This document shows, piece after piece, positions 5,737-18,633 of a DNA stretch of 24,000 nucleotides. The notes below the pieces were generated by a model. It was given only the letters and a program-made list of their open reading frames with translations. It did no database searches and was not told the origin of the DNA. Source of the stretch: Candidatus Paracaedibacteraceae bacterium (GTDB taxonomy: Bacteria > Pseudomonadota > Alphaproteobacteria > Paracaedibacterales > Paracaedibacteraceae). How positions within the stretch are numbered: position 1 is the first letter of the stretch; each line of letters starts with the position of its first letter. Where the stretch lies: contig JAIBEV010000132.1 in assembly GCA_019459505.1 (NCBI GenBank), positions 263,559 through 287,558 on the forward strand, written 5' to 3'. A program made the translations under genes and the position numbers.

Positions 5737-6201
5737 ATGGCTCAACTAAATTCTGCAGCTCCCACTGCAACAACAACGGTTCGTGCTCAATATATTCGAG
5801 ATTTATCGTTTGAAAATCCAAACCCTTTGGCAATTTTTACCAGTGAAACTCAAGATCAACCAGAAATCTCAGTTGGTATCCAAGCCAAAGCCCAAAACTT
5901 AGGTGAGAGAAATTTTGAACTTATTATCGACTTTAATGTAGACGCAAAACGCGGCAAGGACACAATGTTTATTGTTGAATTGAGCTATGGCGCCGTTGTA
6001 AGTGTTGAGGAGTCTGTTGCGGAAGACCTGGTGCAGCATGCTGTTATGGTTGATGCCGCGCACTTATTATTTCCATTTGCTCGTAATATCATTGCAGATA
6101 TGACACGGGATGGGGGATACCCACCATTGATGTTAGCCCCAATTGATTTTAATAGCTTATATCAGCAACAAGCCGAACAAGCTCCTATAGCAGTTAATTA
6201 A
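5737..6201 (+). CDS. secB: protein-export chaperone SecB
   Basis: 154-aa ORF. QYIRDLSFENPN matches the SecB N-terminal motif (IYxKDxSFExPN). The acidic C-terminal tail and a GGAG ribosome-binding site 8 nt upstream support the call. Confidence 0.9.
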   Translation: MAQLNSAAPTATTTVRAQYIRDLSFENPNPLAIFTSETQDQPEISVGIQAKAQNLGERNFELIIDFNVDAKRGKDTMFIVELSYGAVVSVEESVAEDLVQHAVMVDAAHLLFPFARNIIADMTRDGGYPPLMLAPIDFNSLYQQQAEQAPIAVN

Positions 6202-6209
6202 TAAATTAA

Positions 6210-6237
6210 AGGGGCAGAATTTCTGCCTCTTTTTTTT
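6210..6237 (+). terminator. Rho-independent terminator after secB
   Basis: The stem aggggcag/ctgcctct (8 bp including one G-U pair) has a 5-nt loop and is followed by a T run of seven or more, 9 nt after the secB stop. Confidence 0.75.
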
Positions 6238-6298
6238 AGCTATACCCTCTTTGCTATTGTTTTTCTAAACTAAATATGGCGACTACCATTTTCAAAAA

Positions 6299-7516
6299 AT
6301 GACGACATTATCTAATAAAAATATTTATAGCCTGCCGATTATTCTTGTGTTGGCGACAATAGTTTTTGAAATGTCATCCGACCTTTATTTACCGAGTCTC
6401 CCTGAAATGGCGATTTTTTATGGTGTTCCCCATCATACAATTGTCATGACAATTAGTACGTATATGATTGGTTTTTCTTTGATGGGATTGGTGGGAGGCG
6501 CCTTATCAGACAGTTTAGGGCGAAAACCTGTCTTTATGCTGGGAATGGGAATCTTTGTTATCGGTAGTATTGGTTGTTATTTTGCTTTTGATATTTATTT
6601 TCTCACCCTTTCACGATTAGTCCAAGGCATGGGCGCCGGAATCAGTTATGTGATTTCAACCGCAATGATTAAGGATAGGTTTTCCGATCATTTGTGCTCG
6701 CGTCTTTTTTCATTAATGGGAACAGCCATTGCTTTATCTCCTACGGTCGCTCCTATTATTGGCAGTAAAATCAGTGCCTGGTGGGGGTGGAGTTTTAATT
6801 TTACAGTTATCCTGGTGGCTGCTGTTCTCACCTATATTATCTGCCGTATTGGATTAATTGAAACTCTTGAGGTATCAAAAAGGCAGGCCCTCAATTTTAA
6901 AACAACATTGAAATCTTATGGTCATCTCTTTTTGAGCCGTAAAACATGCGGATATGCCTTTATTTCTGGCCTGACTTATGGATCGCTGTGGGCCTGGATT
7001 GCTGTCGCTCCTTTTTTCTTTATTGAAAGGATTGGAATTTCTGCAGCAGACTATGCCTATTATGCCACGATTGGTCCTCTTTCTTATATGACTGGCGCTT
7101 TTTTAAACCAATTTCTTGTCATGCGCTTAGGGGTAGATCAACTCTTGAAGATAGGCCTGACGATTATTACAGTCGGTAGTTTTTACTTAAACTTTATTAG
7201 CTTTAGCCATGGTTTAAATAAAGAGGGTTTGATCATTGGACTCATTTTGTTCTGTGTGGGTCTTGCGCCTGTGTTTTCTAATGCGGCCACCAGAAGTTTG
7301 GATGTGCCCCCTCATCAACGGGGGGCGGCTTCTGCTGTTTTAGGATTGGTTGAAATGATTTTAGCTGCTGTTTATGCTTATGGGGCGAGTTTGTTTAATG
7401 ATGGCAGCATGCGATCGGCGACAGTCATGATGGGTGGAAGTGCCTTTTTATGCATTCTGCTATACATTTGGATCCAACAAAGTATAAAATACTTACATAA
7501 AACATCTGCAAGGTAA
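6299..7516 (+). CDS. MFS transporter, Bcr/CflA-type drug efflux family
   Basis: 405-aa ORF with about 12 hydrophobic segments. The MFS loop motif GGALSDSLGRKPV lies between TM2 and TM3, and LPSLPEMA is the Bcr-like N-terminus. Confidence 0.8.
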   Translation: MTTLSNKNIYSLPIILVLATIVFEMSSDLYLPSLPEMAIFYGVPHHTIVMTISTYMIGFSLMGLVGGALSDSLGRKPVFMLGMGIFVIGSIGCYFAFDIYFLTLSRLVQGMGAGISYVISTAMIKDRFSDHLCSRLFSLMGTAIALSPTVAPIIGSKISAWWGWSFNFTVILVAAVLTYIICRIGLIETLEVSKRQALNFKTTLKSYGHLFLSRKTCGYAFISGLTYGSLWAWIAVAPFFFIERIGISAADYAYYATIGPLSYMTGAFLNQFLVMRLGVDQLLKIGLTIITVGSFYLNFISFSHGLNKEGLIIGLILFCVGLAPVFSNAATRSLDVPPHQRGAASAVLGLVEMILAAVYAYGASLFNDGSMRSATVMMGGSAFLCILLYIWIQQSIKYLHKTSAR

Positions 7517-7527
7517 TTCATTTATTC

Positions 7528-8868
7528 ATGACCGCCCCATCTCCGACTCGAGTGTTTGGTTTTTGGACCGCAACTTCATTAGTCCTTGGCAATATGATTG
7601 GTTCAGGTATTTTTTACTTGCCCGCATCCTTAGCGCATGTTGGACCCATTAGTATTCTTGGTTGGGTCATAACGGCTGTGGGAGCTATCAGCTTAGCCTA
7701 TGTTTTCTCTAACCTATCGCGTCACAATCCTCAAGCGGGGGGGCCCTTTAGCCATACCCGCCAAGCCTTTGGCGATCAAATGGGATTTTTTATGGCCTGG
7801 GGCTATTGGATCATGACGTGGTCAAGTAATGCTGCCGTTTCCCTTGCCTTTGTTAGTTATTTATCTCACTTTGTGCCCCTTTTAGCTGAATCTAAACTCG
7901 CCAGTTTTAGCATGGCAACCTGTTTAATTTGGTTTACCACCTTCTTAAATTGCCGCAATTTAAAATACGGTGGGTTTGTCCAAGTTTTAACAGTTATTAT
8001 TAAAATCTTACCGCTAATCGTGGTTGCTCTGGTTGGGTGGTATTTTGTCGAACCGCAAAATTATGTTCCTTTTAATCCTAATTTTGAAAGCCCGTTCAGT
8101 GCTATTAATGCAGCCGCTGCCATTACGATGTGGGCTTTTATCGGGCTGGAATCGGCAACCGTACCCGCTGAAAATGTAGAAAATCCTGGCAAGACTATTT
8201 CCAGAGCAACATTATTTGGCACCTTGTTAGGGGCTTTAATTTATATTATAATTACAGCGGTTGTTTTTGGACTTATCCCGGCCGACGAATTGGCTCATTC
8301 CCCTGCCCCTTTTGTTGATGCAGCCTCCAAAATTTTTGGTAGTTGGGTCGGCCCTATTATTGGCTTTTGTGTATTGATCTCTATCTTTGGCGGCTTAAAT
8401 GGTTGGGTTCTTTTACAAGGACAAATTCCCTATACGTTGTCTAAAGAAGGATTATTTCCCAAAGTTTTTAGTAAATTATCGGCCAATGGCACCCCAGTTT
8501 TTGGTCTTGTTTTTACGAGTGTTCTGATGACGGTGTTGATGTCTATGAATTATAGTAAATCGTTAGTTTCCCAGTTCAATAATATGATTCTTATTGGAAC
8601 AATTATGACCTTGGGAACCTATTTGTCGTCCACCCTAGCTTCCCTCAAACTGCTCAAACACTCCTATATTGTAAAATTAAAACCTGCAATCCTTATAGCC
8701 ATTTTCTTAGGGGCTGCTTATTGTGTATGGGCGATTTTGGGGGCAAGTCTTGACGATTTGGCGATTTGCTTTATTGCTTATGTTTGCGGTATTCCAGTCT
8801 ATATTTATAGCCGGTGGGAACACCGCAGAATAAGTCGACGAGGCTATACTGTTACATCTGCCCGCTGA
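7528..8868 (+). CDS. APC-superfamily amino acid permease, basic amino acid/polyamine antiporter-like
   Basis: 446-aa polytopic ORF. The N-terminus LVLGNMIGSGIFYLPASLA...AGGPFSHTRQAFG resembles AdiC/PotE/ArcD-type antiporters. Confidence 0.85.
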   Translation: MTAPSPTRVFGFWTATSLVLGNMIGSGIFYLPASLAHVGPISILGWVITAVGAISLAYVFSNLSRHNPQAGGPFSHTRQAFGDQMGFFMAWGYWIMTWSSNAAVSLAFVSYLSHFVPLLAESKLASFSMATCLIWFTTFLNCRNLKYGGFVQVLTVIIKILPLIVVALVGWYFVEPQNYVPFNPNFESPFSAINAAAAITMWAFIGLESATVPAENVENPGKTISRATLFGTLLGALIYIIITAVVFGLIPADELAHSPAPFVDAASKIFGSWVGPIIGFCVLISIFGGLNGWVLLQGQIPYTLSKEGLFPKVFSKLSANGTPVFGLVFTSVLMTVLMSMNYSKSLVSQFNNMILIGTIMTLGTYLSSTLASLKLLKHSYIVKLKPAILIAIFLGAAYCVWAILGASLDDLAICFIAYVCGIPVYIYSRWEHRRISRRGYTVTSAR

Positions 8869-8869
8869 C
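8771..8869. repeat. left copy of a ~100-bp imperfect direct repeat (the functional 3' end of the permease gene)
   Basis: It aligns with 11620-11722. Identical blocks are tgcggtattccagtctatatttata, gccggtgggaacaccgcaga, aggctatactgttacat and cccgctgac. Differences are a 3-nt indel, a 1-nt indel and a handful of substitutions. Confidence 0.85.
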
Positions 8870-9315
8870 TGCATAAGATTAAGTTATCTCCCATAATTCA
8901 TAAGGCAGAAAAGATTTCCCATAAAGAGGATTCTCTTAATTTTGTCCTATCAACAGTCATCGCTATTAAAGTAAGAGTTCCCCTGTACAGAGAGAGGTTT
9001 AATATTGGGATAAAAGAGTTAAAAATCCTGTTGTCTTTCCACAATATAATGATATTTCTCGGTTATGAGAAGAAGAGGGGTGGCTAACTCATGCTTATTA
9101 TCATGGGGTTATCCAGGCGGGAATAAAGATGGTTATGGATTAAAGCTACTCCTCTGTGGACCTTTAAATAGGAGTAAATTTAAAAATTGACTCTATTATT
9201 TCAGGCAAAGTTCTCATTTTCAAAATATTTTTTATGTTCCTTGTAAAGATAACAAACTATTCCCACCTTGTGCTTATAAGCCATCTTTTTTACTTAAGAT
9301 TCCAAGAGGAAAGCT

Positions 9316-11496
9316 ATGACAATACTAAGAGCAAAATTTATCTCTTCATTATCCTTTTTAATTTTAGGAGGAGCTCCTTCTCTTTGTTTAGGAATGGATG
9401 CACCTCATTTAGATAATATGAAGCCAGACTTACAAGTTGCTGTTAATCCGGAAAAAGATCGATTGACAAAGCAATTCCTAATTTTAGCATTATCTGTGCC
9501 ACCGACTGAGGAAGCGAGTGTTTTAGGGAATTTAGAGATACAGGCTTATCCAGAGATAGACAACAAGTATTTAAATTATTTTGACCAAGACTTAATGCGT
9601 ATCGATGAGTTTAAACAGTATTGTATAGAACCTTTAAAACTTATAATAAATTCTCCTGACTTAATAAATAAAATTAGTCCAGAATTATTAGGTAGCTATG
9701 CGGATCTCATTGATCAAAAATTTACTAAACATTTTATTTATTTAATTAATCTTGTAGAGGATAATCCCAAAAAATCACATTTATCAATTGCTTTCTCAAA
9801 ACTTTTTTTTGTTAGCCTTGTAAATTTTTGCCGTAAAGATGTATGCGATTTTAAGAAAATAACATATTTTCCGAGTAAAATATTTTTTCCTATGATAAAT
9901 AACAGTGTATCATTTGTACAATTTCTTTTGGTACGAAATCATATAAATAAACTCTATAATTATATTTACACGAGGGGGGTAACAAGAAAATCCTTAAACG
10001 CAAAAGACTATTATGATTATTTAGATGAGATTCAAAAAGATTTTAATCATACATTTAATTTTACGGAAGATTTCGGGCGTAGTTACAAAAAGAAACGTCC
10101 AAAGCCTGAGCATCCACAAAAGCACTATGTTGAAAATAAAAGACCAAGAGTTGACGATGCTCGGCCTGTTCCACAAGTACAAGATATTCAAGCAGTGCCG
10201 CCAGCACCAGACAAACCTAGGAAGAAGCGTTTTATGGATGAGATAAGGGAAATGGTTGGTCAAATATTAAAGAGTCATTATGAAGTGCCTGCTCCGGCTA
10301 CTCCTCCAGCACCAGCTGAAGCGGTGCTTCAAGAGATTCCCAATCCTCAAGTTCCTCAAGCAGGTGCGTTTCAATATGGGCCGAAGCCACCAGCACCTCA
10401 GCCAGTTGTCCCTCCGCAAGGTAACATTAATCCAGTAATACACCATCCTTTTGGCTTCCCACAGGTTATGAATCCACAAGCTCCTCAACCAGGTGCGTTG
10501 CAACATGTACTGAAGCCGCCAGTGCTCCCACACCTCGCCTTTCAAAGAGGCCAAGCTCCTTTAGCTCCACAAGGAGTAGTCATCCAAGGTGATCCAAAGC
10601 CCTCTGAACCCGCAAGACAAATTGCAGTCGTGAAAAGATTACGAACCCGCGAAGGATATACATATTTTAAAAATAATACCGGTGCTATTTTTTATGGGGA
10701 TCTAACACAAGCTAGAAGTGCAACTCATGAGCAACGCCAAAAATTAACTGAAATTTTTAACCAACTTATCGAGTTACGTTTTAATAAACAAATTAATGAA
10801 GAAAATTACAAAATTGCTTATGGTGTTCTAGAAGTTATTGGGACTGCCATAAAAGAAAACCGACAAATTTGTAAGGAGCTTTTCAAGAAATTTTCAGAAA
10901 ATCATCAAAATTATATACAGTATAGCCTAGAGCCTCGGGTTGTTATTCATTGTGAACAAAGGGATATGCCCGCCCAAGATAGAACATTTGCTGTTTATAA
11001 TACTTTGGCTTTAGCCTATGGATTTGCGGTGGAAAGTAATATTGTACAAGACTTTTTTACTCATGCATTTTTGGACGATTTATCGGGTTTTGGCTGTCTT
11101 GACGGTGCTCAGAAAATTTTATTAAATTGGCTTGAAGCAAATATGGAAAAAATTGAAAGAGTGAAAAATAAGGAAATTAAAGAAACAGTTATAACAGATA
11201 GTTCAATTTTTCAAACATTCGCAGAAGTTATCAATGAATCAAAAAATAAGACCATAATTAATGGTTTGGATCACTTAACTTATAACCAATATATGGAAAA
11301 ATTGAAAGCAGAGCAGAGTTTCCAACAGCTAGAAAAAGAGAAACAGAATATACAAATCATGAGGGCTGAAGAGATATTCTACGGTGAATTAGAAGAGAAT
11401 ATTAGAGTTAACGTTCTGGAAAAACTGCTCAATTTGAAATATGAGGTTGACATTGAAGCTATAGAAAGATGTTGGACTATTTTAAGAGGAGAATAA
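9316..11496 (+). CDS. orphan secreted proline-rich protein (candidate host-targeted effector)
   Basis: 726-aa ORF with the ribosome-binding site AGAGGA 5-6 nt upstream. The N-terminus MTILRAKFISSLSFLILGGAPSLCLG looks like a Sec signal peptide. Flanking domains are AT-rich and the core is P/Q-rich. No family recognised. Confidence 0.8.
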   Translation: MTILRAKFISSLSFLILGGAPSLCLGMDAPHLDNMKPDLQVAVNPEKDRLTKQFLILALSVPPTEEASVLGNLEIQAYPEIDNKYLNYFDQDLMRIDEFKQYCIEPLKLIINSPDLINKISPELLGSYADLIDQKFTKHFIYLINLVEDNPKKSHLSIAFSKLFFVSLVNFCRKDVCDFKKITYFPSKIFFPMINNSVSFVQFLLVRNHINKLYNYIYTRGVTRKSLNAKDYYDYLDEIQKDFNHTFNFTEDFGRSYKKKRPKPEHPQKHYVENKRPRVDDARPVPQVQDIQAVPPAPDKPRKKRFMDEIREMVGQILKSHYEVPAPATPPAPAEAVLQEIPNPQVPQAGAFQYGPKPPAPQPVVPPQGNINPVIHHPFGFPQVMNPQAPQPGALQHVLKPPVLPHLAFQRGQAPLAPQGVVIQGDPKPSEPARQIAVVKRLRTREGYTYFKNNTGAIFYGDLTQARSATHEQRQKLTEIFNQLIELRFNKQINEENYKIAYGVLEVIGTAIKENRQICKELFKKFSENHQNYIQYSLEPRVVIHCEQRDMPAQDRTFAVYNTLALAYGFAVESNIVQDFFTHAFLDDLSGFGCLDGAQKILLNWLEANMEKIERVKNKEIKETVITDSSIFQTFAEVINESKNKTIINGLDHLTYNQYMEKLKAEQSFQQLEKEKQNIQIMRAEEIFYGELEENIRVNVLEKLLNLKYEVDIEAIERCWTILRGE
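10342..10527 (+). repeat. intragenic duplication, period about 129 bp (43 aa), in the Pro-rich core
   Basis: aatcctcaagttcctcaagcaggtgcgtttcaatatgggccgaagccacc (from 10342) matches aatccacaagctcctcaaccaggtgcgttgcaacatgtactgaagccgcc (from 10471). At protein level NPQVPQAGAFQYGPKPP matches NPQAPQPGALQHVLKPP. Confidence 0.7.
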
Positions 11497-11619
11497 GGTT
11501 ACTTCTTTAACTTTTAAGTTTAAAAGCATGTTGACCTGGTTATCCGGAGGGCCTCCTTACCCCTCCTAAATTAAGATTGGTTAATCTTGTGGGGTAAAGA
11601 GATCGAAAGTTTTCAAGCT

Positions 11620-11722
11620 TTATCGCTTATGACTGCGGTATTCCAGTCTATATTTATAATAGCCGGTGGGAACACCGCAGAGTAAGGTCGAAGAGGCTAT
11701 ACTGTTACATGCGCCCGCTGAC
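11620..11722. repeat. right copy of the direct repeat (decayed, displaced duplicate of the permease 3' end)
   Basis: It would encode CGIPVYIYNSRWEHRRV..., compared with CGIPVYIYSRWEHRRI... in the intact gene, before a 1-nt indel breaks the frame. It also supplies the last codons and stop of the convergent MFS gene. Confidence 0.85.
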
Positions 11723-12892
11723 GGATCAGCGTAAAGTACACCCCACTCATCGTTACGGCTACGGCTAAAAAGAACAGCGGCATTGGCAGTAATGTGTCAT
11801 TATGCAAGAGTCCCATTAAAAATGTGGTTCCTGAAATGATGACATAGTACATGAATCCAAATAAAGCCGAAGCAGTCCCTACGACGGCTTGATAATTCCC
11901 TAAAGCCATACTAAGGCTGCTGAGAATAGTCAAGTTAATGCCCATTATCACAATCAGCATGGCGCCTAACGTTGTGAAAAGAATTAGTCCTTTAGCCTTA
12001 CCTAAGGTTAAGATGGCGCCTCCGAAAATCAAGGTTCCTAGCAAAATTAGGGTTAAGCCTCTTTTTATAATCTCCTCACCCGAGAAAGTTTTAAACATAT
12101 GACGCCCTATTAATCCCGCAACTGCAGCTGCCAGCGCTATTAATATAAAAGTTAATCCATACTGAGAAGGAGTTAACCCTAACATCTTAATCATGTAAAA
12201 GGGGGCTTCAGCATAATAACTAAAAATAATTCCATTTCCTAAGCCAATGAGACCGCAGAAACCCATCACATGCTTGTCCTTTATCAAGGTTTTCCAGACT
12301 ATAAAAATTGAAAGTTCCTTTTCCCCTTATTGACGTTGGTCTCGGGTAAATTTGTTCTGCATAGGCTTAAAATTAGGAAGCCAGCCCCTAAAAGAAACAA
12401 GAAAATAGAAGACCAGTCAAAGGTCTGAGTAATAAGTCCGCCAATAATAGGGCCAATAGCGGGTGCCAACGGTAAAGCGCTTCCAATTGTGGAAAAAACA
12501 CGTCCTCGATCATGTGCTGAGAAGGCCTCACGACAGATCGCCTGTACTAATACACTGCCTGCACTTCCACCTAATGCTTGGATAAAGCGGGCAAGCATCA
12601 AGGTTTCAATAGAGGTTGATAGATAGCATCCTAAGCAGCTGATACAATAGATTAATAGGCCACTTAAGAGACACGGTTTGCGACCGAATCGATCGGAGCT
12701 ATAGCCCCAAAAAATAGTCCCGATAGCAAATCCAAGGAGGTAAATTGTTAGAGTAAATTCTACCCAATGCTCTTCTACGCTCAGTGCATGAGCAATCTGA
12801 GGCAGCGAGGGAGTATAAACGGTTTCTGAAAGTTGGGGTAAGCCAATGATACATATCAGCAACCACAAGGCTGGTGCTTTTAAATTCAACAT
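11697..12892 (-). pseudogene. frameshifted Bcr/CflA-type MFS transporter (paralog of 6299-7516)
   Basis: Two adjacent same-strand ORFs of 197 and 196 aa sit in different frames, and each equals one six-helix MFS half. The N-half carries SSDRFGRKP. The downstream frame stays open upstream of its nominal TTG start (..SIFIVWKTLIKDKHVMG). The frame switch falls at an A5/T5 run at 12302-12306. Confidence 0.6.
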
Positions 12893-13299: not shown

Positions 13300-14229
13300 T
13301 TGATATATCAGCTAAGAATATTTTCAGAAGTGGGCATTGAAATCGTGGACGTGGGGCGACTTTTATTACTGTTAGACCAATTAAGGTTGCCCATTCTTGT
13401 TGCGCTTGGCATTCTCTTCTTTCTCTTATTAATTGTCCAAGCTCGCCGGCGTTATTGGGTTCTTTTATTGGTCTTTTCGGCAGTTATTGTTAGTCCCCTC
13501 CTGTCGCATTGGCAGCTGCATTATGATGAATTTCAACCGGTTACATTACCGCTGCGGCTAATGCATCAAAATTGCTGGGGGGATAATCCCGATACGGATG
13601 CTATTTTTAAGCAGATTTGCCTTGAAAATCCAGATGTAGTTATGCTGCAAGAATGTACTCCTGCTCTCTATTGGCGCATCAGAAAGGAATTAGGATCCTT
13701 AGGCTATGCTGTATCTTCGGATTTTGAGAATTATGATCCCACACATCATCATCGTTATAATCGATTGGTCATTTTGACAAAGGGATTTAAAGTTTTGAAA
13801 CGCTATAAGCTTAAGAATTATCCTGTTTTTGTGATCCATGCTCGTTCTTTTAAGACGGGCGAGCTTTATCGTTTTGTTAGCGTTCATTTGGAGAGATGCT
13901 ATAATATTGAAGAAAACTATTATCAAAATATTGCAGATCAATTAGGAGAGTTTAAAGGGAAAACGATCCTGTCTGGCGATTTTAATCTCGTTCCCTGGTC
14001 AAGATACTATATCAGTTTTTGTCAGATGTTAGGATTAAAGGATGGCTTAAAAGGACAAGGACTTATTGCCAGTTTTCCAGCTCCTCAAAACAAAAAAGCA
14101 GCTTATAAAGCGCCTGCTTTCTTGCCAATTGATCGTCTATTGGTTTCTCCAACGATTCGCACCAAGCGAGTGGATCGACTTCCCTCTTTGGGATCCGATC
14201 ATTATGGTTTTATTGCCCATATCTCTTAA
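13300..14229 (+). CDS. membrane-anchored endonuclease/exonuclease/phosphatase (EEP) family protein
   Basis: 309-aa ORF with two N-terminal hydrophobic helices. MLQECTP, the motif GDFNLVPWS and the C-terminal GSDHYGF are typical EEP catalytic motifs. The start is uncertain because the nominal start is TTG and in-frame GTG codons follow. Confidence 0.7.
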   Translation: MIYQLRIFSEVGIEIVDVGRLLLLLDQLRLPILVALGILFFLLLIVQARRRYWVLLLVFSAVIVSPLLSHWQLHYDEFQPVTLPLRLMHQNCWGDNPDTDAIFKQICLENPDVVMLQECTPALYWRIRKELGSLGYAVSSDFENYDPTHHHRYNRLVILTKGFKVLKRYKLKNYPVFVIHARSFKTGELYRFVSVHLERCYNIEENYYQNIADQLGEFKGKTILSGDFNLVPWSRYYISFCQMLGLKDGLKGQGLIASFPAPQNKKAAYKAPAFLPIDRLLVSPTIRTKRVDRLPSLGSDHYGFIAHIS

Positions 14230-15557: not shown

Positions 15558-16132
15558 CTTAAGTCCTTATTGAGTATAAATATCTTTTCTGGGGTTACAA
15601 TATAATCCATTGGGTAATCCTTATCACAAACAGGAATATTGTCAAGTTGTTGACAGTCATAACCGACCCCAATGGCTATAATATTCTTACTCAGGCTTCT
15701 ATCATAATATCCTTTACCTTGTCCTAAACGATTTCCCCTGGCATCAAAACCAAGCAAGGGAACTAACGCAATGTGCGGCGTTAAAGGAACCTCGTGGGAA
15801 GGTGCAGAGAACAATTGGCTGTTTGTGGAAGTGGTGGAAATCGGTGACCAAGCAATAAAATCAAGTTGACATGTTGGGGTTAATTGGGGGACGCAAACCA
15901 CATGGCCTTGGTTATACAAATAGGCCATCAGTGCGAGGATATTAAGTTCAGATCCCCTGGGCACATAGCCAGCAATAATTTGAGAGGATTTTAGCGGTAT
16001 AACTCTCCTTAGCTCTTGCCACTGCTTAAGCAATTTCTGATCGATATCAGTCTGGACAATCAGGGCATGATAGTTCTGTCGACGCTGGCGTAACAAAGGA
16101 CGTAAAGCTTGTTTTGCGATTTCTACTCCCAT
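15554..16132 (-). CDS. 5-formyltetrahydrofolate cyclo-ligase
   Basis: 192-aa ORF. GFDARGNRLGQGKGYYDRSL is the MTHFS signature. Its stop overlaps the dehydrogenase start by 4 nt (ATGA). Confidence 0.85.
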   Translation of the reverse strand: MGVEIAKQALRPLLRQRRQNYHALIVQTDIDQKLLKQWQELRRVIPLKSSQIIAGYVPRGSELNILALMAYLYNQGHVVCVPQLTPTCQLDFIAWSPISTTSTNSQLFSAPSHEVPLTPHIALVPLLGFDARGNRLGQGKGYYDRSLSKNIIAIGVGYDCQQLDNIPVCDKDYPMDYIVTPEKIFILNKDLR

Positions 16133-16995
16133 GTTATGGTCCCCCCCAGTTCCGAGTGAGAGGGAAAAGTGGATGAGGTGGGGGGCGAAGGTTGAGGCGA
16201 TGGGGGAGAAACTGTAGAAGTTTGCGGTAGAGCCTGTCGCTGAGGCCTTACGGCATGAGGCGGCGTTGGAGAAACAGCGGGGGTTGTACGCTGCGGTGGC
16301 TGACGAGACTCTTCAGTACAGGGATTCTTAGCATGCAAGGCCATGAAATTGTCACGGGTTATCCAGTAAATTTGATGGTCAAAGTCAGGAGCTTGGCCTT
16401 CGACAAAAGTTAACCTGCCTTGACTATTTTTAGTCTCTGCTCCCTGAGCAGGGAGGCGACTACCAGTGTCTGTTAAAGCTCCCCCCCCTTTTTTACCATG
16501 GCTAATTAAAATGAAAGCTAAAGGATCTTCTTTCTCTTCCACAATATTTTGATTGGTAAAAAGATTTTGAAGTTTGATAATGTGCGCCGAAATCTTGCAG
16601 AAGTATTCACTACTGCCATCATTTGTTCTCGCTTGAGTCTTTGTCAAAGTTGGATGGACGGCAAAGGTAAACCAATTTCCATAGCCATCTTTGGCAGTTT
16701 TTTCTGGAAGCCCCAGCGTTGTAAAAGGGACAAACCCCACACAGTGAGTATGGTTTTCACAGTTCTTATTAGCTTTACCATTGGACGACGGGGCGGGGGC
16801 AGGGAGGCGATGGTATTGTAACACATATGCTGCTAAAGCAGCCACAATTTGTTCCTCGTGGTTGTGTGTCGTTTTTTGTTGATTAAGGCGATGCTGTACC
16901 GTGAGGAGGGGGATGGTCATGCTTGCAACGATACCCATAATGATCAAAGCAATTGAAATTTCAATTAAACTGAAAGCAGATAAACGGCGTGTCAT
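16123..16995 (-). CDS. prepilin-type N-terminal cleavage/methylation domain protein (pseudopilin-like) with a Pro-rich C-terminal tail
   Basis: 290-aa ORF. The N-terminus RRLSA|FSLIEISIALIIMGIVA fits the class III signal, with Phe at +1, Glu at +5 and a hydrophobic helix. DGYGNWFTF loosely recalls the GspG DPWGNPY motif. The tail is SPTPPHAVRPQRQALPQTSTVSPPSPQPSPPTSS. Confidence 0.7.
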   Translation of the reverse strand: MTRRLSAFSLIEISIALIIMGIVASMTIPLLTVQHRLNQQKTTHNHEEQIVAALAAYVLQYHRLPAPAPSSNGKANKNCENHTHCVGFVPFTTLGLPEKTAKDGYGNWFTFAVHPTLTKTQARTNDGSSEYFCKISAHIIKLQNLFTNQNIVEEKEDPLAFILISHGKKGGGALTDTGSRLPAQGAETKNSQGRLTFVEGQAPDFDHQIYWITRDNFMALHAKNPCTEESRQPPQRTTPAVSPTPPHAVRPQRQALPQTSTVSPPSPQPSPPTSSTFPSHSELGGTITWE

Positions 16996-18106: not shown

Positions 18107-18140
18107 GGTCTCATCACCTTTCTGTCAAAAAATTTCAAGT

Positions 18141-18420
18141 GGGGGCTTCTGTTGCCCGGTGCCCCCGAACCGCGACTAACTTTAGTGCTTAATATCCGCA
18201 ATAGCTAAGATATTAGGCAGCCGCAGAAGCTACTGCTCCAAAACGGTTGTTATTAGCCGATGCAAATTTATTACTGTTTGCATTTATTAAATTTGCCCGA
18301 TAACGGCGGTGCTCACCGGACGAAAAATTTACCTTTACTACGCGCGTCGATCCTATTTCGTCCCCATAAATGGTGGAGACGCCGGGTACCGCCCCCGGGT
18401 CCGCAACGCTTATTCCATAA
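18141..18420 (-). ncRNA. ssrA: two-piece, circularly permuted tmRNA gene (acceptor piece, then 5-nt spacer, then coding piece)
   Basis: Read on the minus strand, the acceptor piece ends ...ggac ccggg ggcggta cccgg cgtctcc ACCA, with its 3' end at 18371. After the spacer tttat, the coding piece starts at 18365 with ggggacg aaata ggatcgac, close to E. coli GGGGCUG AUUCU GGAUUCGAC. The acceptor stem ggggacg/cgtctcc has G3:U70. The tag ORF and a stop-codon helix (taatatc/gatatta) are present. The 3' hairpin gggggc...gccccc (18141-18166) is followed by a T run. The 5' boundary is approximate. Confidence 0.85.
18213..18257 (-). other. tmRNA tag reading frame encoding ANNNRFGAVASAAA*
   Basis: gct aat aac aac cgt ttt gga gca gta gct tct gcg gct gcc taa. 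This fits the alphaproteobacterial AN(D/N)N...AA tag pattern. Confidence 0.8.
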
Positions 18421-18633
18421 ATTGTTTATCGTCATAGTCAGTTACCTGACACCTATAAAATAGGCCTTTTTTCTAAAAAATAAAAGGGGAAAGACTAAAA
18501 ATATTATTGGTCCTTTAAAATTCTTTTGATGTTTATTTGTCACAGGTTTTAAGAATTTGTTAAGCATTAACCATTTATTAACTTTTATAACCATAGAGTT
18601 AAGATAAGTCAGTGTTTTTCAGGGGAGAGGTTA

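Follow-up and report, generated by a model that had tools for sequence, protein, structure and literature searches.

What does a single gene that lies between two convergent transporter genes do for Candidatus Paracaedibacteraceae bacterium, and does its product act on the bacterial envelope or on the host? The gene belongs to a 24,000-nucleotide stretch of the genome (GenBank assembly GCA_019459505.1, contig JAIBEV010000132.1, positions 263,559 to 287,558 of the forward strand; here called the 24-kb window, to which all positions refer unless a contig is named) and consists of an open reading frame (ORF) at 9316..11496 of the plus strand, the longest of the window, which begins with ATG and encodes a protein of 726 residues. 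A preceding sequence-only reading had presented it as the only gene of an insert, which is confirmed, and as an orphan, which is not: the protein has a syntenic ortholog of 81% identity, and 27 representative clusters share its modules. The best explanation overall is that of a Sec-exported, modular and laterally inserted effector which is directed to the host and would be imported into the amoeba nucleus via a basic cluster, a reading that we favour without calling it probable. Its components are not equally secure. The protein is narrowly probable to be host-directed and secreted, and its specific localization in the host nucleus is rather doubtful.

Signal peptide and predicted cleavage junction

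The start codon is preceded by a ribosome-binding site (AAGAGGAAA, 9304-9312, plus strand) with a GAGG Shine-Dalgarno motif 6 nt 5' of the ATG, which is kept in the ortholog on the metagenome contig L001. The protein begins with MTILRAKFISSLSFLILGGAPSLCLG, and its residues 1-26 (9316..9393, plus strand; GC content 31%) constitute a predicted Sec-type signal peptide with a cut by signal peptidase I (SPase I) at LCLG/MDAP. The assignment is rule-based and relies on the n/h/c layout of signal peptides, with the basic residues R5 and K7, small residues at -3 and -1 (C-L-G before M) and the hydrophobic maximum of the whole protein (19-residue window, Kyte-Doolittle mean 1.68) at residues 8-26. The same layout recurs in ~20 homologs, which agrees with the signal peptide initially read from the query. 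The 726-residue protein does not appear to be a signal peptidase II lipoprotein; no lipobox of the pattern [LVI][ASTVI][GAS]C was found, C24 being preceded by P-S-L, and the homologs likewise are devoid of it.

Most full-length family members start in a signal-peptide-like manner, the predicted peptide ending with a small-x-small motif directly before M[DENQ]. The position immediately behind the predicted cut is almost always a Met with D, E, N or Q as its neighbour, which was seen in 15 sequences, as exemplified by SSTA/MEAP, CSQA/MEAP, PCMA/MEEP, PIFG/MELE, SFA/MEAP, QSLA/MNDL and PSAA/MQIS besides LCLG/MDAP of the query; homologs with this junction are P0003, P0004, P0005, P0006, P0007, P0009, P0011, P0013, P0022, P0023, P0025, P0027, P0028, P0030 and the protein of L082:12602-14170. 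The junction, located at 9394-9399 in the window, often reads MEAP or MDAP. Two gene calls start at the junction Met itself and regain a signal peptide in their longer versions (P0016 versus P0030). The internal Met (Met27 in the query) was considered as a general alternative start and rejected, since no Shine-Dalgarno motif was found 5' of it in 6 loci; an alternative start is therefore not the simple explanation of the junction Met. Met-Asp, Met-Glu, Met-Asn and Met-Gln are exactly the substrate set of eukaryotic NatB.

A family of shuffled modules

An exhaustive HMMER scan over 1.84 billion representatives yielded 27 clusters, with E ≤ 1e-10 for 16 of these, while a word-indexed protein search returned only the query and one ortholog and, when started from the C-domain profile, only P0032 and P0023. 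The query is identical to a protein annotated as hypothetical in a Candidatus Paracaedibacteraceae metagenome-assembled genome. Iterative profile searches delineate three modules termed N (query residues 27-262), C1 (~442-622) and C2 (~632-723), of which C1 is present in 22 of the 27 representatives. All three are combined in the query, P0003 and P0005, and C1 and C2 follow other N-terminal regions in P0006, P0007, P0009 and P0011-13. C1 alone makes up proteins of 170-330 aa (P0010, P0014, P0015, P0017, P0019, P0022-24, P0027 and P0028) or is linked to another C-terminal region (P0020/P0031 and P0026). C2 occurs without C1 behind N in P0016/P0030, and both N and C2 are present twice in P0018 and P0025; the N module was also detected in a 522-aa protein of contig L082. 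The collected sequences form a small family of three shuffled modules, which is multi-copy in Odyssella genomes. P0003 (WP_029448271) and P0030 are proteins of Candidatus Odyssella thessalonicensis, and an Odyssella-like 101-kb contig (L082), whose Hfq is identical and whose BioA is at least 90% identical to the Odyssella proteins, carries four family members within 12 kb. These four (L082:10001-16628 and L082:21559-22221) include two large proteins in which N and C2 are each duplicated internally, which indicates local expansion by tandem duplication.

The family is confined to uncultured or host-associated genomes. In Ca. Odyssella acanthamoebae it is represented by a 291-aa protein (P0032), which is 69% identical to the C-domain alone. 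Beyond the two orthologs the closest homologs come in pieces, namely this 291-aa C-domain, a 170-aa N-terminal fragment (P0004) and a 45-aa C-terminal fragment (P0021); the gene may be broken in the Ca. Odyssella acanthamoebae lineage, or the contigs may be truncated. P0020 derives from a metagenome-assembled genome (MAG) whose Obg is at most 71% identical to that of MAGs labelled bacterium, Myxococcota or Deltaproteobacteria, and since this Obg is non-Holosporales, C1 also exists outside this order. In P0020 (L084:682-2205) and P0031 (L083:1775-3391) C1 is fused to a C-terminal region with OTU-like motifs around Cys and His (NDGNCGF ... HYD); the match of the P0020 region to Pfam OTU is weak and below threshold (E = 0.059, 14.3 bits versus a cut-off of 23.3). 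No mention of the family accessions was found in a literature search, and the family, its three modules and the predicted structure of the C-domain are undescribed and not covered by a Pfam model.

Architecture and predicted structure

Within the query, the N module (residues 27-255; 9394..10080, plus strand; delineated by jackhmmer and alignment) is helical and Asn/Lys/Ile/Phe-rich, its commonest residues being L, K, D, F, I and N. Its GC content of 29% and its GC content at third codon positions (GC3) of 23% are in line with the AT-rich N-domain described earlier, for which the hand count of 16 G+C among the 60 bases of 9661-9720 proved exact; the peptide strings then quoted are all present in the translation. 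A basic segment (residues 256-320, 17 K+R in 65 residues) leads into a P/Q linker (residues 321-432, GC 53%) with 29 P and 14 Q. Residues 280-432 together form a disordered Pro/Gln/Ala-rich linker (10153..10611, plus strand), which holds the cluster PRKKR (10216-10230) and, as had been noticed before, an internal repeat. The two 52-nt copies of the latter (10342-10393 and 10471-10522) are offset by 129 nt (43 residues) and are 83% identical; this two-copy 129-nt repeat was recognized in a repeat search of the window and not reported by Tandem Repeats Finder. In the paralog P0003 the equivalent linker carries tandem repeats of 42 nt of its own, so that repeat-prone linkers are not limited to the query.

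The C-domain of ~294 aa (residues 433-726, GC 32%) comprises C1 (residues 433-625; 10612..11190, plus strand) and C2 (residues 626-726 and the stop codon; 11191..11496, plus strand). As AlphaFold reached a predicted local distance difference test (pLDDT) score of only 30 for the full-length protein from two sequences, a C-domain model based on a 23-sequence alignment was used instead, which has a mean pLDDT of 91.8 and a predicted template modelling (TM) score of 0.64. It consists of three short strands followed by ten helices, six of which are assigned to C1 behind the strands; C2 is helical, with helices at C-domain residues 196-293. The domain of ~300 aa postulated from the sequence is hereby supported and ends in long helices; its coiled-coil-like tail is not supported, as the terminal helices (pLDDT mostly 86-97) are modelled as part of the C-domain. 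Foldseek detected no match for this model in the PDB (best E = 0.9, TM < 0.25) or in BFVD (best E = 0.04, TM 0.15), and the C-domain is thus a confidently predicted structure without a counterpart in these two collections.

Polar positions conserved in C1 are N515, C519, H545, D550, R556, C594, D/E596 and W605. Five of them, N515 (22/23), C519 (21/23), H545 (18/23), D550 (16/23) and C594 (19/23), may form a catalytic or metal site. Catalysis by C1 is nevertheless uncertain, because the Cys and His are lost in one subfamily, which consists of P0015, P0019 and the 522-aa protein. Sequence-based searches gave no further indication of function: the query had no match in Pfam, NCBIfam or PDB sequences, all members of the N and C alignments revealed no recurrent Pfam family, and PHROGs and PADLOC were likewise without match, in agreement with the earlier statement that no enzyme motif or known family is recognizable. 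Profiles of the N and C alignments met PDB sequences only at chance level (BRDT bromodomain with E = 0.05, Lassa L protein, designed helical repeats and RalF with E = 0.26). The bromodomain candidate was rejected, as Foldseek on the confident model produced no such match. No recognizable chromatin- or DNA-directed domain (SET, ankyrin, TAL repeats or D5_N) emerged from the Pfam, NCBIfam and PDB-sequence searches.

Basic clusters resembling nuclear localization signals

Basic clusters had been claimed for the query, and four are located at KKKRPK (residues 258-263), KRPR (275-278), PRKKR (301-305) and KRLR (440-443). The first two are part of a conserved cluster, residues 256-279 with the sequence SYKKKRPKPEHPQKHYVENKRPRV (10081..10152, plus strand), which resembles a bipartite classical nuclear localization signal (NLS). 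KKKRPK and KRPR are spaced by 11 residues, or by 13 if counted from the KR pair, and at the level of patterns the query conforms to a classical mono- or bipartite NLS. Residues 255-279 (RSYKKKRPKPEHPQKHYVENKRPRV) are identical to the 81% ortholog at 25 of 25 positions, compared with 26 of 50 for the following residues 280-329, as is characteristic of a short linear motif under constraint. The linker of the query contains four K[KR]x[KR] matches versus 0.24 expected, and none is found in the other 515 residues. Over the linkers of the family, 26 such motifs were observed versus 5.3 expected from shuffles of the same linkers, with at least one in 16 of 20 members. Several of the family clusters, namely NKRPRVDD, LKKPRLD, LKKRKLD and PKKRRIHED, resemble c-Myc-type NLS. 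In short members the basic patches are positioned directly before C1.

A single-gene insertion between two transporter genes

The gene is carried by a 2.75-kb single-gene cassette inserted between two convergent transporter genes. The insert is defined as 8870-11616, because direct repeats flank the gene and the corresponding site is empty in Candidatus Odyssella thessalonicensis; on the coding strand it holds no other ORF of 80 aa or more besides the gene. In the left repeat (8768..8869, plus strand) the amino-acid permease gene (7528..8868) has its functional 3' end, which is accompanied by a non-functional duplicate of the final 26 nt of the convergent major facilitator superfamily (MFS) gene, and the right repeat (11617..11722, plus strand) contains a non-functional copy of the permease 3' end and the functional MFS 3' end (stop codon 11697-11699, minus strand). 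The repeats of 102 and 106 nt are 89.6% identical over 106 aligned positions with gaps and 92-96% identical in ungapped blocks. At the empty site of Odyssella thessalonicensis, which has the same Tim44-SecB-MFS-permease order, the permease gene (10001..11320) directly overlaps the MFS gene (11317..12555), and the sequence aligns to the left repeat copy up to CTGAC.

The composition of the gene is atypical for its surroundings, its GC content of 35% and GC3 of 25% contrasting with 40-47% and 30-45%, respectively, of the other 21 ORFs of the window. Together with flanking direct repeats and an empty site in a relative, the locus thereby displays the features of a genomic island, and the earlier description of the gene as compositionally atypical and island-borne stands. 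The paralogs in Odyssella-like genomes match the composition of their own genomes and the window copy does not, which fits a recent arrival of the latter. No integrase, recombinase or other mobility gene was found within the insert, and tblastn produced no match in plasmid and phage collections. The paralog loci show no flanking direct repeats, and the family is consequently not a recognizable mobile cassette in general. Neither a sigma-70 promoter nor a canonical terminator rises above the shuffled background in the upstream (8870..9315, plus strand) and downstream (11497..11616, plus strand) non-coding parts of the insert, and the predicted fold of the 3' untranslated region is no stabler than that of shuffled sequence (z = -0.74).

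On the 5' side the neighbouring genes are, in order, kdtA, lpxK, smr, mltA, a Tim44-like gene, secB, an MFS transporter and the amino-acid permease, and on the 3' side a second MFS gene, an endonuclease/exonuclease/phosphatase (EEP) family protein and UDP-glucose dehydrogenase. The MFS gene 3' of the insert (11697-12892, minus strand) is split into the ORFs 12299..12892 and 11697..12287 of different frames, which correspond to residues 15-207 and 217-410 of the ortholog in Odyssella, an intact protein of 412 aa; it is either a frameshift pseudogene beside the insertion or an assembly error. The EEP family protein (13300-14229) has a TTG start, a hydrophobic N-terminus resembling a membrane anchor and a 5' end within a stretch of 32% GC. 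Farther away, a permuted two-piece alphaproteobacterial transfer-messenger RNA with an unusually long tag (ANSNKFASANNNRFGAVASAAA) is encoded at 18122-18489 of the minus strand (ARAGORN; Rfam RF01849, 256 bits).

Comparison with the ortholog and selection

The ENA metagenome contig L001 contains the same insert with the same repeat pair, an 81% identical protein and the same synteny, and a metagenome scan found again only this contig. The ratio of nonsynonymous to synonymous substitution rates (dN/dS) between the two orthologs amounts to 0.36 for N, 0.34 for C1 and 0.40 for C2, compared with 0.06-0.11 for secB, the upstream MFS gene and the permease gene, which implies that the folded parts are under purifying but relaxed selection. 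For the basic/linker segment (residues 256-320) a dN/dS of 0.94 and for the P/Q linker (residues 321-432) of 0.41 was calculated; over residues 280-432 the linker region is 69-70% identical. The synonymous divergence from L001 is 0.24 for the inserted gene and 0.54-0.67 for the flanking housekeeping genes (5737-8868), and the non-coding DNA of the insert is ~81-88% identical. Possible causes are an exchange of the insert between the two lineages later than their split or a lowering of the estimate by AT-biased third positions. A 125-nt stretch 5' of the gene (9004-9128) is missing from the otherwise collinear L001 and has no second copy in the window or in the retrieved loci.

Mechanistic scenario and competing explanations

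The resemblance of the family to an effector repertoire is founded on the signal peptides, the shuffling, the tandem paralogs, the relaxed selection, the rarity, the insertion in a symbiont genome and the constrained NLS-like motif in a disordered linker. Taken together, these features do not look like those of housekeeping envelope proteins, and homology to a widespread housekeeping envelope family, by which the sequence-only reading was to be refuted, was looked for and not found. Compared with that reading the effector-like interpretation is strengthened. Many family members again display signal peptides, module shuffling, paralogs in tandem or clusters of NLS-like motifs; the anatomy, the insertion and these recurrent features bear out its modular, island-borne and effector-like character, and secretion, host delivery and a host target are still conjectural.

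In agreement with these data the following scenario is proposed. SecYEG would export the precursor and SPase I would cut behind LCLG, generating a mature protein with an N-terminal Met-Asp. The mature protein would then pass the outer membrane, candidate routes being a type II-like system, vesicles or lysis, and arrive in the amoeba cytoplasm, where host importin-alpha might read the conserved KKKRPK...KRPR cluster as a classical NLS. Finally, the helical N and C1/C2 modules would bind or modify a host target, with C1 perhaps acting as a catalytic or metal-binding module by means of N515, C519, H545, D550 and C594. The crossing of the outer membrane, the nuclear import and the biochemical activity are steps which we infer. 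In the context of export, a 290-aa ORF at 16123-16995 of the minus strand has a weak N-terminal methylation motif of the pilin or pseudopilin kind (Pfam N_methyl, E = 8e-4, under the cut-off) and could be connected with an export apparatus (type II or type IV pilus-like).

Several observations weigh against the proposed host-directed effector. A Sec signal leads to the periplasm only, and no outer-membrane route was found here. P0032 is annotated without a signal peptide and consists of the C-domain alone; P0013, P0018, P0026 and P0028 contain no K[KR]x[KR] motif, and nucleic acids, membranes or cell-envelope polymers are further possible binding partners of K/R clusters. The loss of the conserved Cys and His of C1 in the subfamily of P0015, P0019 and the 522-aa protein also belongs here, and domains of eukaryotic character, such as ankyrin, F-box or SET, were not detected.

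The main rival follows directly from the first of these objections: an envelope protein of the periplasm or surface that acts on the bacterium's own surface and never enters the host, be it an adhesin, an invasion factor or a spacer. The Sec-type signal peptide, which ends in the periplasm, is indeed the only targeting signal actually supported, and proteins that span the periplasm, such as TonB and TolA, typically have Pro-rich spacers. The Pro-rich linker of the query would correspondingly span the periplasm and its basic cluster bind peptidoglycan, lipopolysaccharide or the membrane, and the neighbourhood contains the envelope and transport genes of MltA, SecB, KdtA and LpxK. However, neither TonB_C, TolA, OmpA, LysM or SPOR domains nor any other Pfam or NCBIfam match was obtained, a beta-barrel or autotransporter domain is missing, and the model and the secondary structure are almost all helical. 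Moreover, the gene arrived by insertion and is missing from the syntenic site of a close relative, the family combines rarity (27 clusters out of 1.84 billion representatives) with multiple copies and shuffled domains, and its dN/dS is 4-6 times that of the neighbouring genes. We therefore consider this explanation unlikely, albeit the most serious of the competitors.

A host-related function with another target is conceivable in the form of a secreted enzyme or toxin that acts in the host cytoplasm or vacuole, or against co-resident microbes, with a Cys-His-Asp or metal-dependent C1 and with basic clusters that bind the substrate or a membrane. The conserved residues N515, C519, H545, D550 and C594, the occurrence of C1 alone in small signal-peptide proteins of 170-330 aa, its fusion to an OTU-like region in P0020/P0031 and the basic patches immediately before C1 in short members all conform to such an enzyme. 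Since Foldseek revealed no hydrolase, transferase or toxin fold, the Cys and His vary and are missing from one subfamily, the OTU match lies below the Pfam cut-off and the insert offers no adjacent immunity-like gene, we regard it as improbable. Slightly more improbable still is a far-reaching extension of the effector hypothesis, according to which the protein would found a structurally new family of effectors that depend on Sec, are directed to the nucleus and pass between unrelated bacteria associated with protists (Holosporales and at least one lineage outside the alphaproteobacteria). This would give Holosporales their first effector family. The near-invariant mature M[DENQ] terminus would then be a host-directed signal made by cleavage, with host N-terminal acetylation or the escape from N-degron surveillance as possible roles.

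Cargo of a type VI (or type IV) secretion system, a view in which the hydrophobic N-terminus is something other than a cleaved Sec signal, deserves attention as almost all sequenced Holosporales genomes except Holospora encode a type VI system and the literature favours it as delivery route (PMC11909080, PMC8163844). The n/h/c layout with its small-x-small site is, however, kept across divergent members, Pfam detected none of the trafficking domains PAAR, VgrG, Rhs, MIX and LXG, the 24-kb window contains no secretion-system genes, and a signal-less isoform would have to start at an internal Met that lacks a Shine-Dalgarno motif, which renders this possibility very improbable. A decaying remnant of a mobile element without current function, to which the absence of an integrase from the island, the raised dN/dS (0.41, and 0.94 in part of the linker), the frameshift-split adjoining MFS gene and the apparently truncated homolog of Ca. 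Odyssella acanthamoebae might point, is the least credible explanation in view of a 726-codon frame open in both lineages at 81% identity, a dN/dS of 0.34-0.40 in all three folded modules, a perfectly conserved basic cluster, a conserved ribosome-binding site and a confident fold prediction.

Comparison with known systems

Secreted effectors and nucleomodulins of intracellular bacteria are already known as a kind, and the host-directed effector favoured here has to be measured against them. Holosporales are an ancient, wholly host-associated order for which no experimentally characterized effector is described in the literature consulted, and the type VI system is the favoured, though only presumed, delivery route (PMC11909080); a Paracaedibacter-like genome encodes both the Sec pathway and a type VI system (PMC8163844). 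The family constitutes a concrete and testable effector candidate for this gap. Its paralogs are present in Odyssella thessalonicensis, an organism isolated from and growing in Acanthamoeba, and the acquisition of genes for host interaction by symbionts can be studied to advantage on this clean insertion of one gene, for which the empty site is documented.

The nearest precedent is PRP1 of Holospora obtusa, a periplasmic protein of 63 kDa that bears a putative signal peptide, is released into the macronucleus of the host and binds the host's DNA (PMC9866348). It stems from the same order, likewise has a signal peptide and demonstrates that in Holosporales a host nucleus can be reached by a Sec-first route. 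Unlike PRP1, which contains a Pfam D5_N domain, the window protein has no Pfam match, and no sequence relation between the two was found. As Holospora is intranuclear and the characterized Paracaedibacteraceae are cytoplasmic symbionts of Acanthamoeba (PMC11909080), the window protein would also need nuclear import; a Sec-first delivery to the host nucleus, if true, would extend the PRP1 precedent to cytoplasmic symbionts.

A second parallel is given by 'Candidatus Liberibacter asiaticus', an intracellular alphaproteobacterium for which Sec-dependent host-directed effectors are described, with mention of nuclear localization signals (PMC10405523). The window protein resembles them as a Sec signal-peptide protein of an intracellular alphaproteobacterium. 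It differs from them by its 726 residues and three modules, and no homology was detected in any search. Sec-dependent effectors of Liberibacter are mostly small single-domain proteins. The nucleomodulins BspJ of Brucella, LntA of Listeria and MgdE and MmpE of mycobacteria are reported to be secreted and to use K/R-rich NLS motifs for entry into the host nucleus. The query shares with them a conserved bipartite-like K/R cluster within a disordered linker, although it is not homologous to any of them and no known nuclear-activity domain was found in it.

With TonB and TolA the protein has in common a hydrophobic segment at the N-terminus, a spacer rich in Pro and a folded C-terminal domain; it deviates from them in that a TonB_C or TolA domain is absent, the N-terminus looks cleavable rather than like an anchor, and the gene is an insert not conserved in relatives. 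The repertoires of Legionella, Amoebophilus and Rickettsiales are typically type IV-delivered and without Sec signals, and many of their proteins contain eukaryote-like domains. Unlike in those amoeba-associated repertoires, the modules of the family are new and Sec signals are present in most full-length members. Nevertheless, domain shuffling, tandem paralogs, repeat-prone low-complexity linkers, a patchy spread over unrelated host-associated bacteria and a possible deubiquitinase-like fusion are traits which the family shares with them; amoebae have been conceived as a 'melting pot' (PMC5751055).

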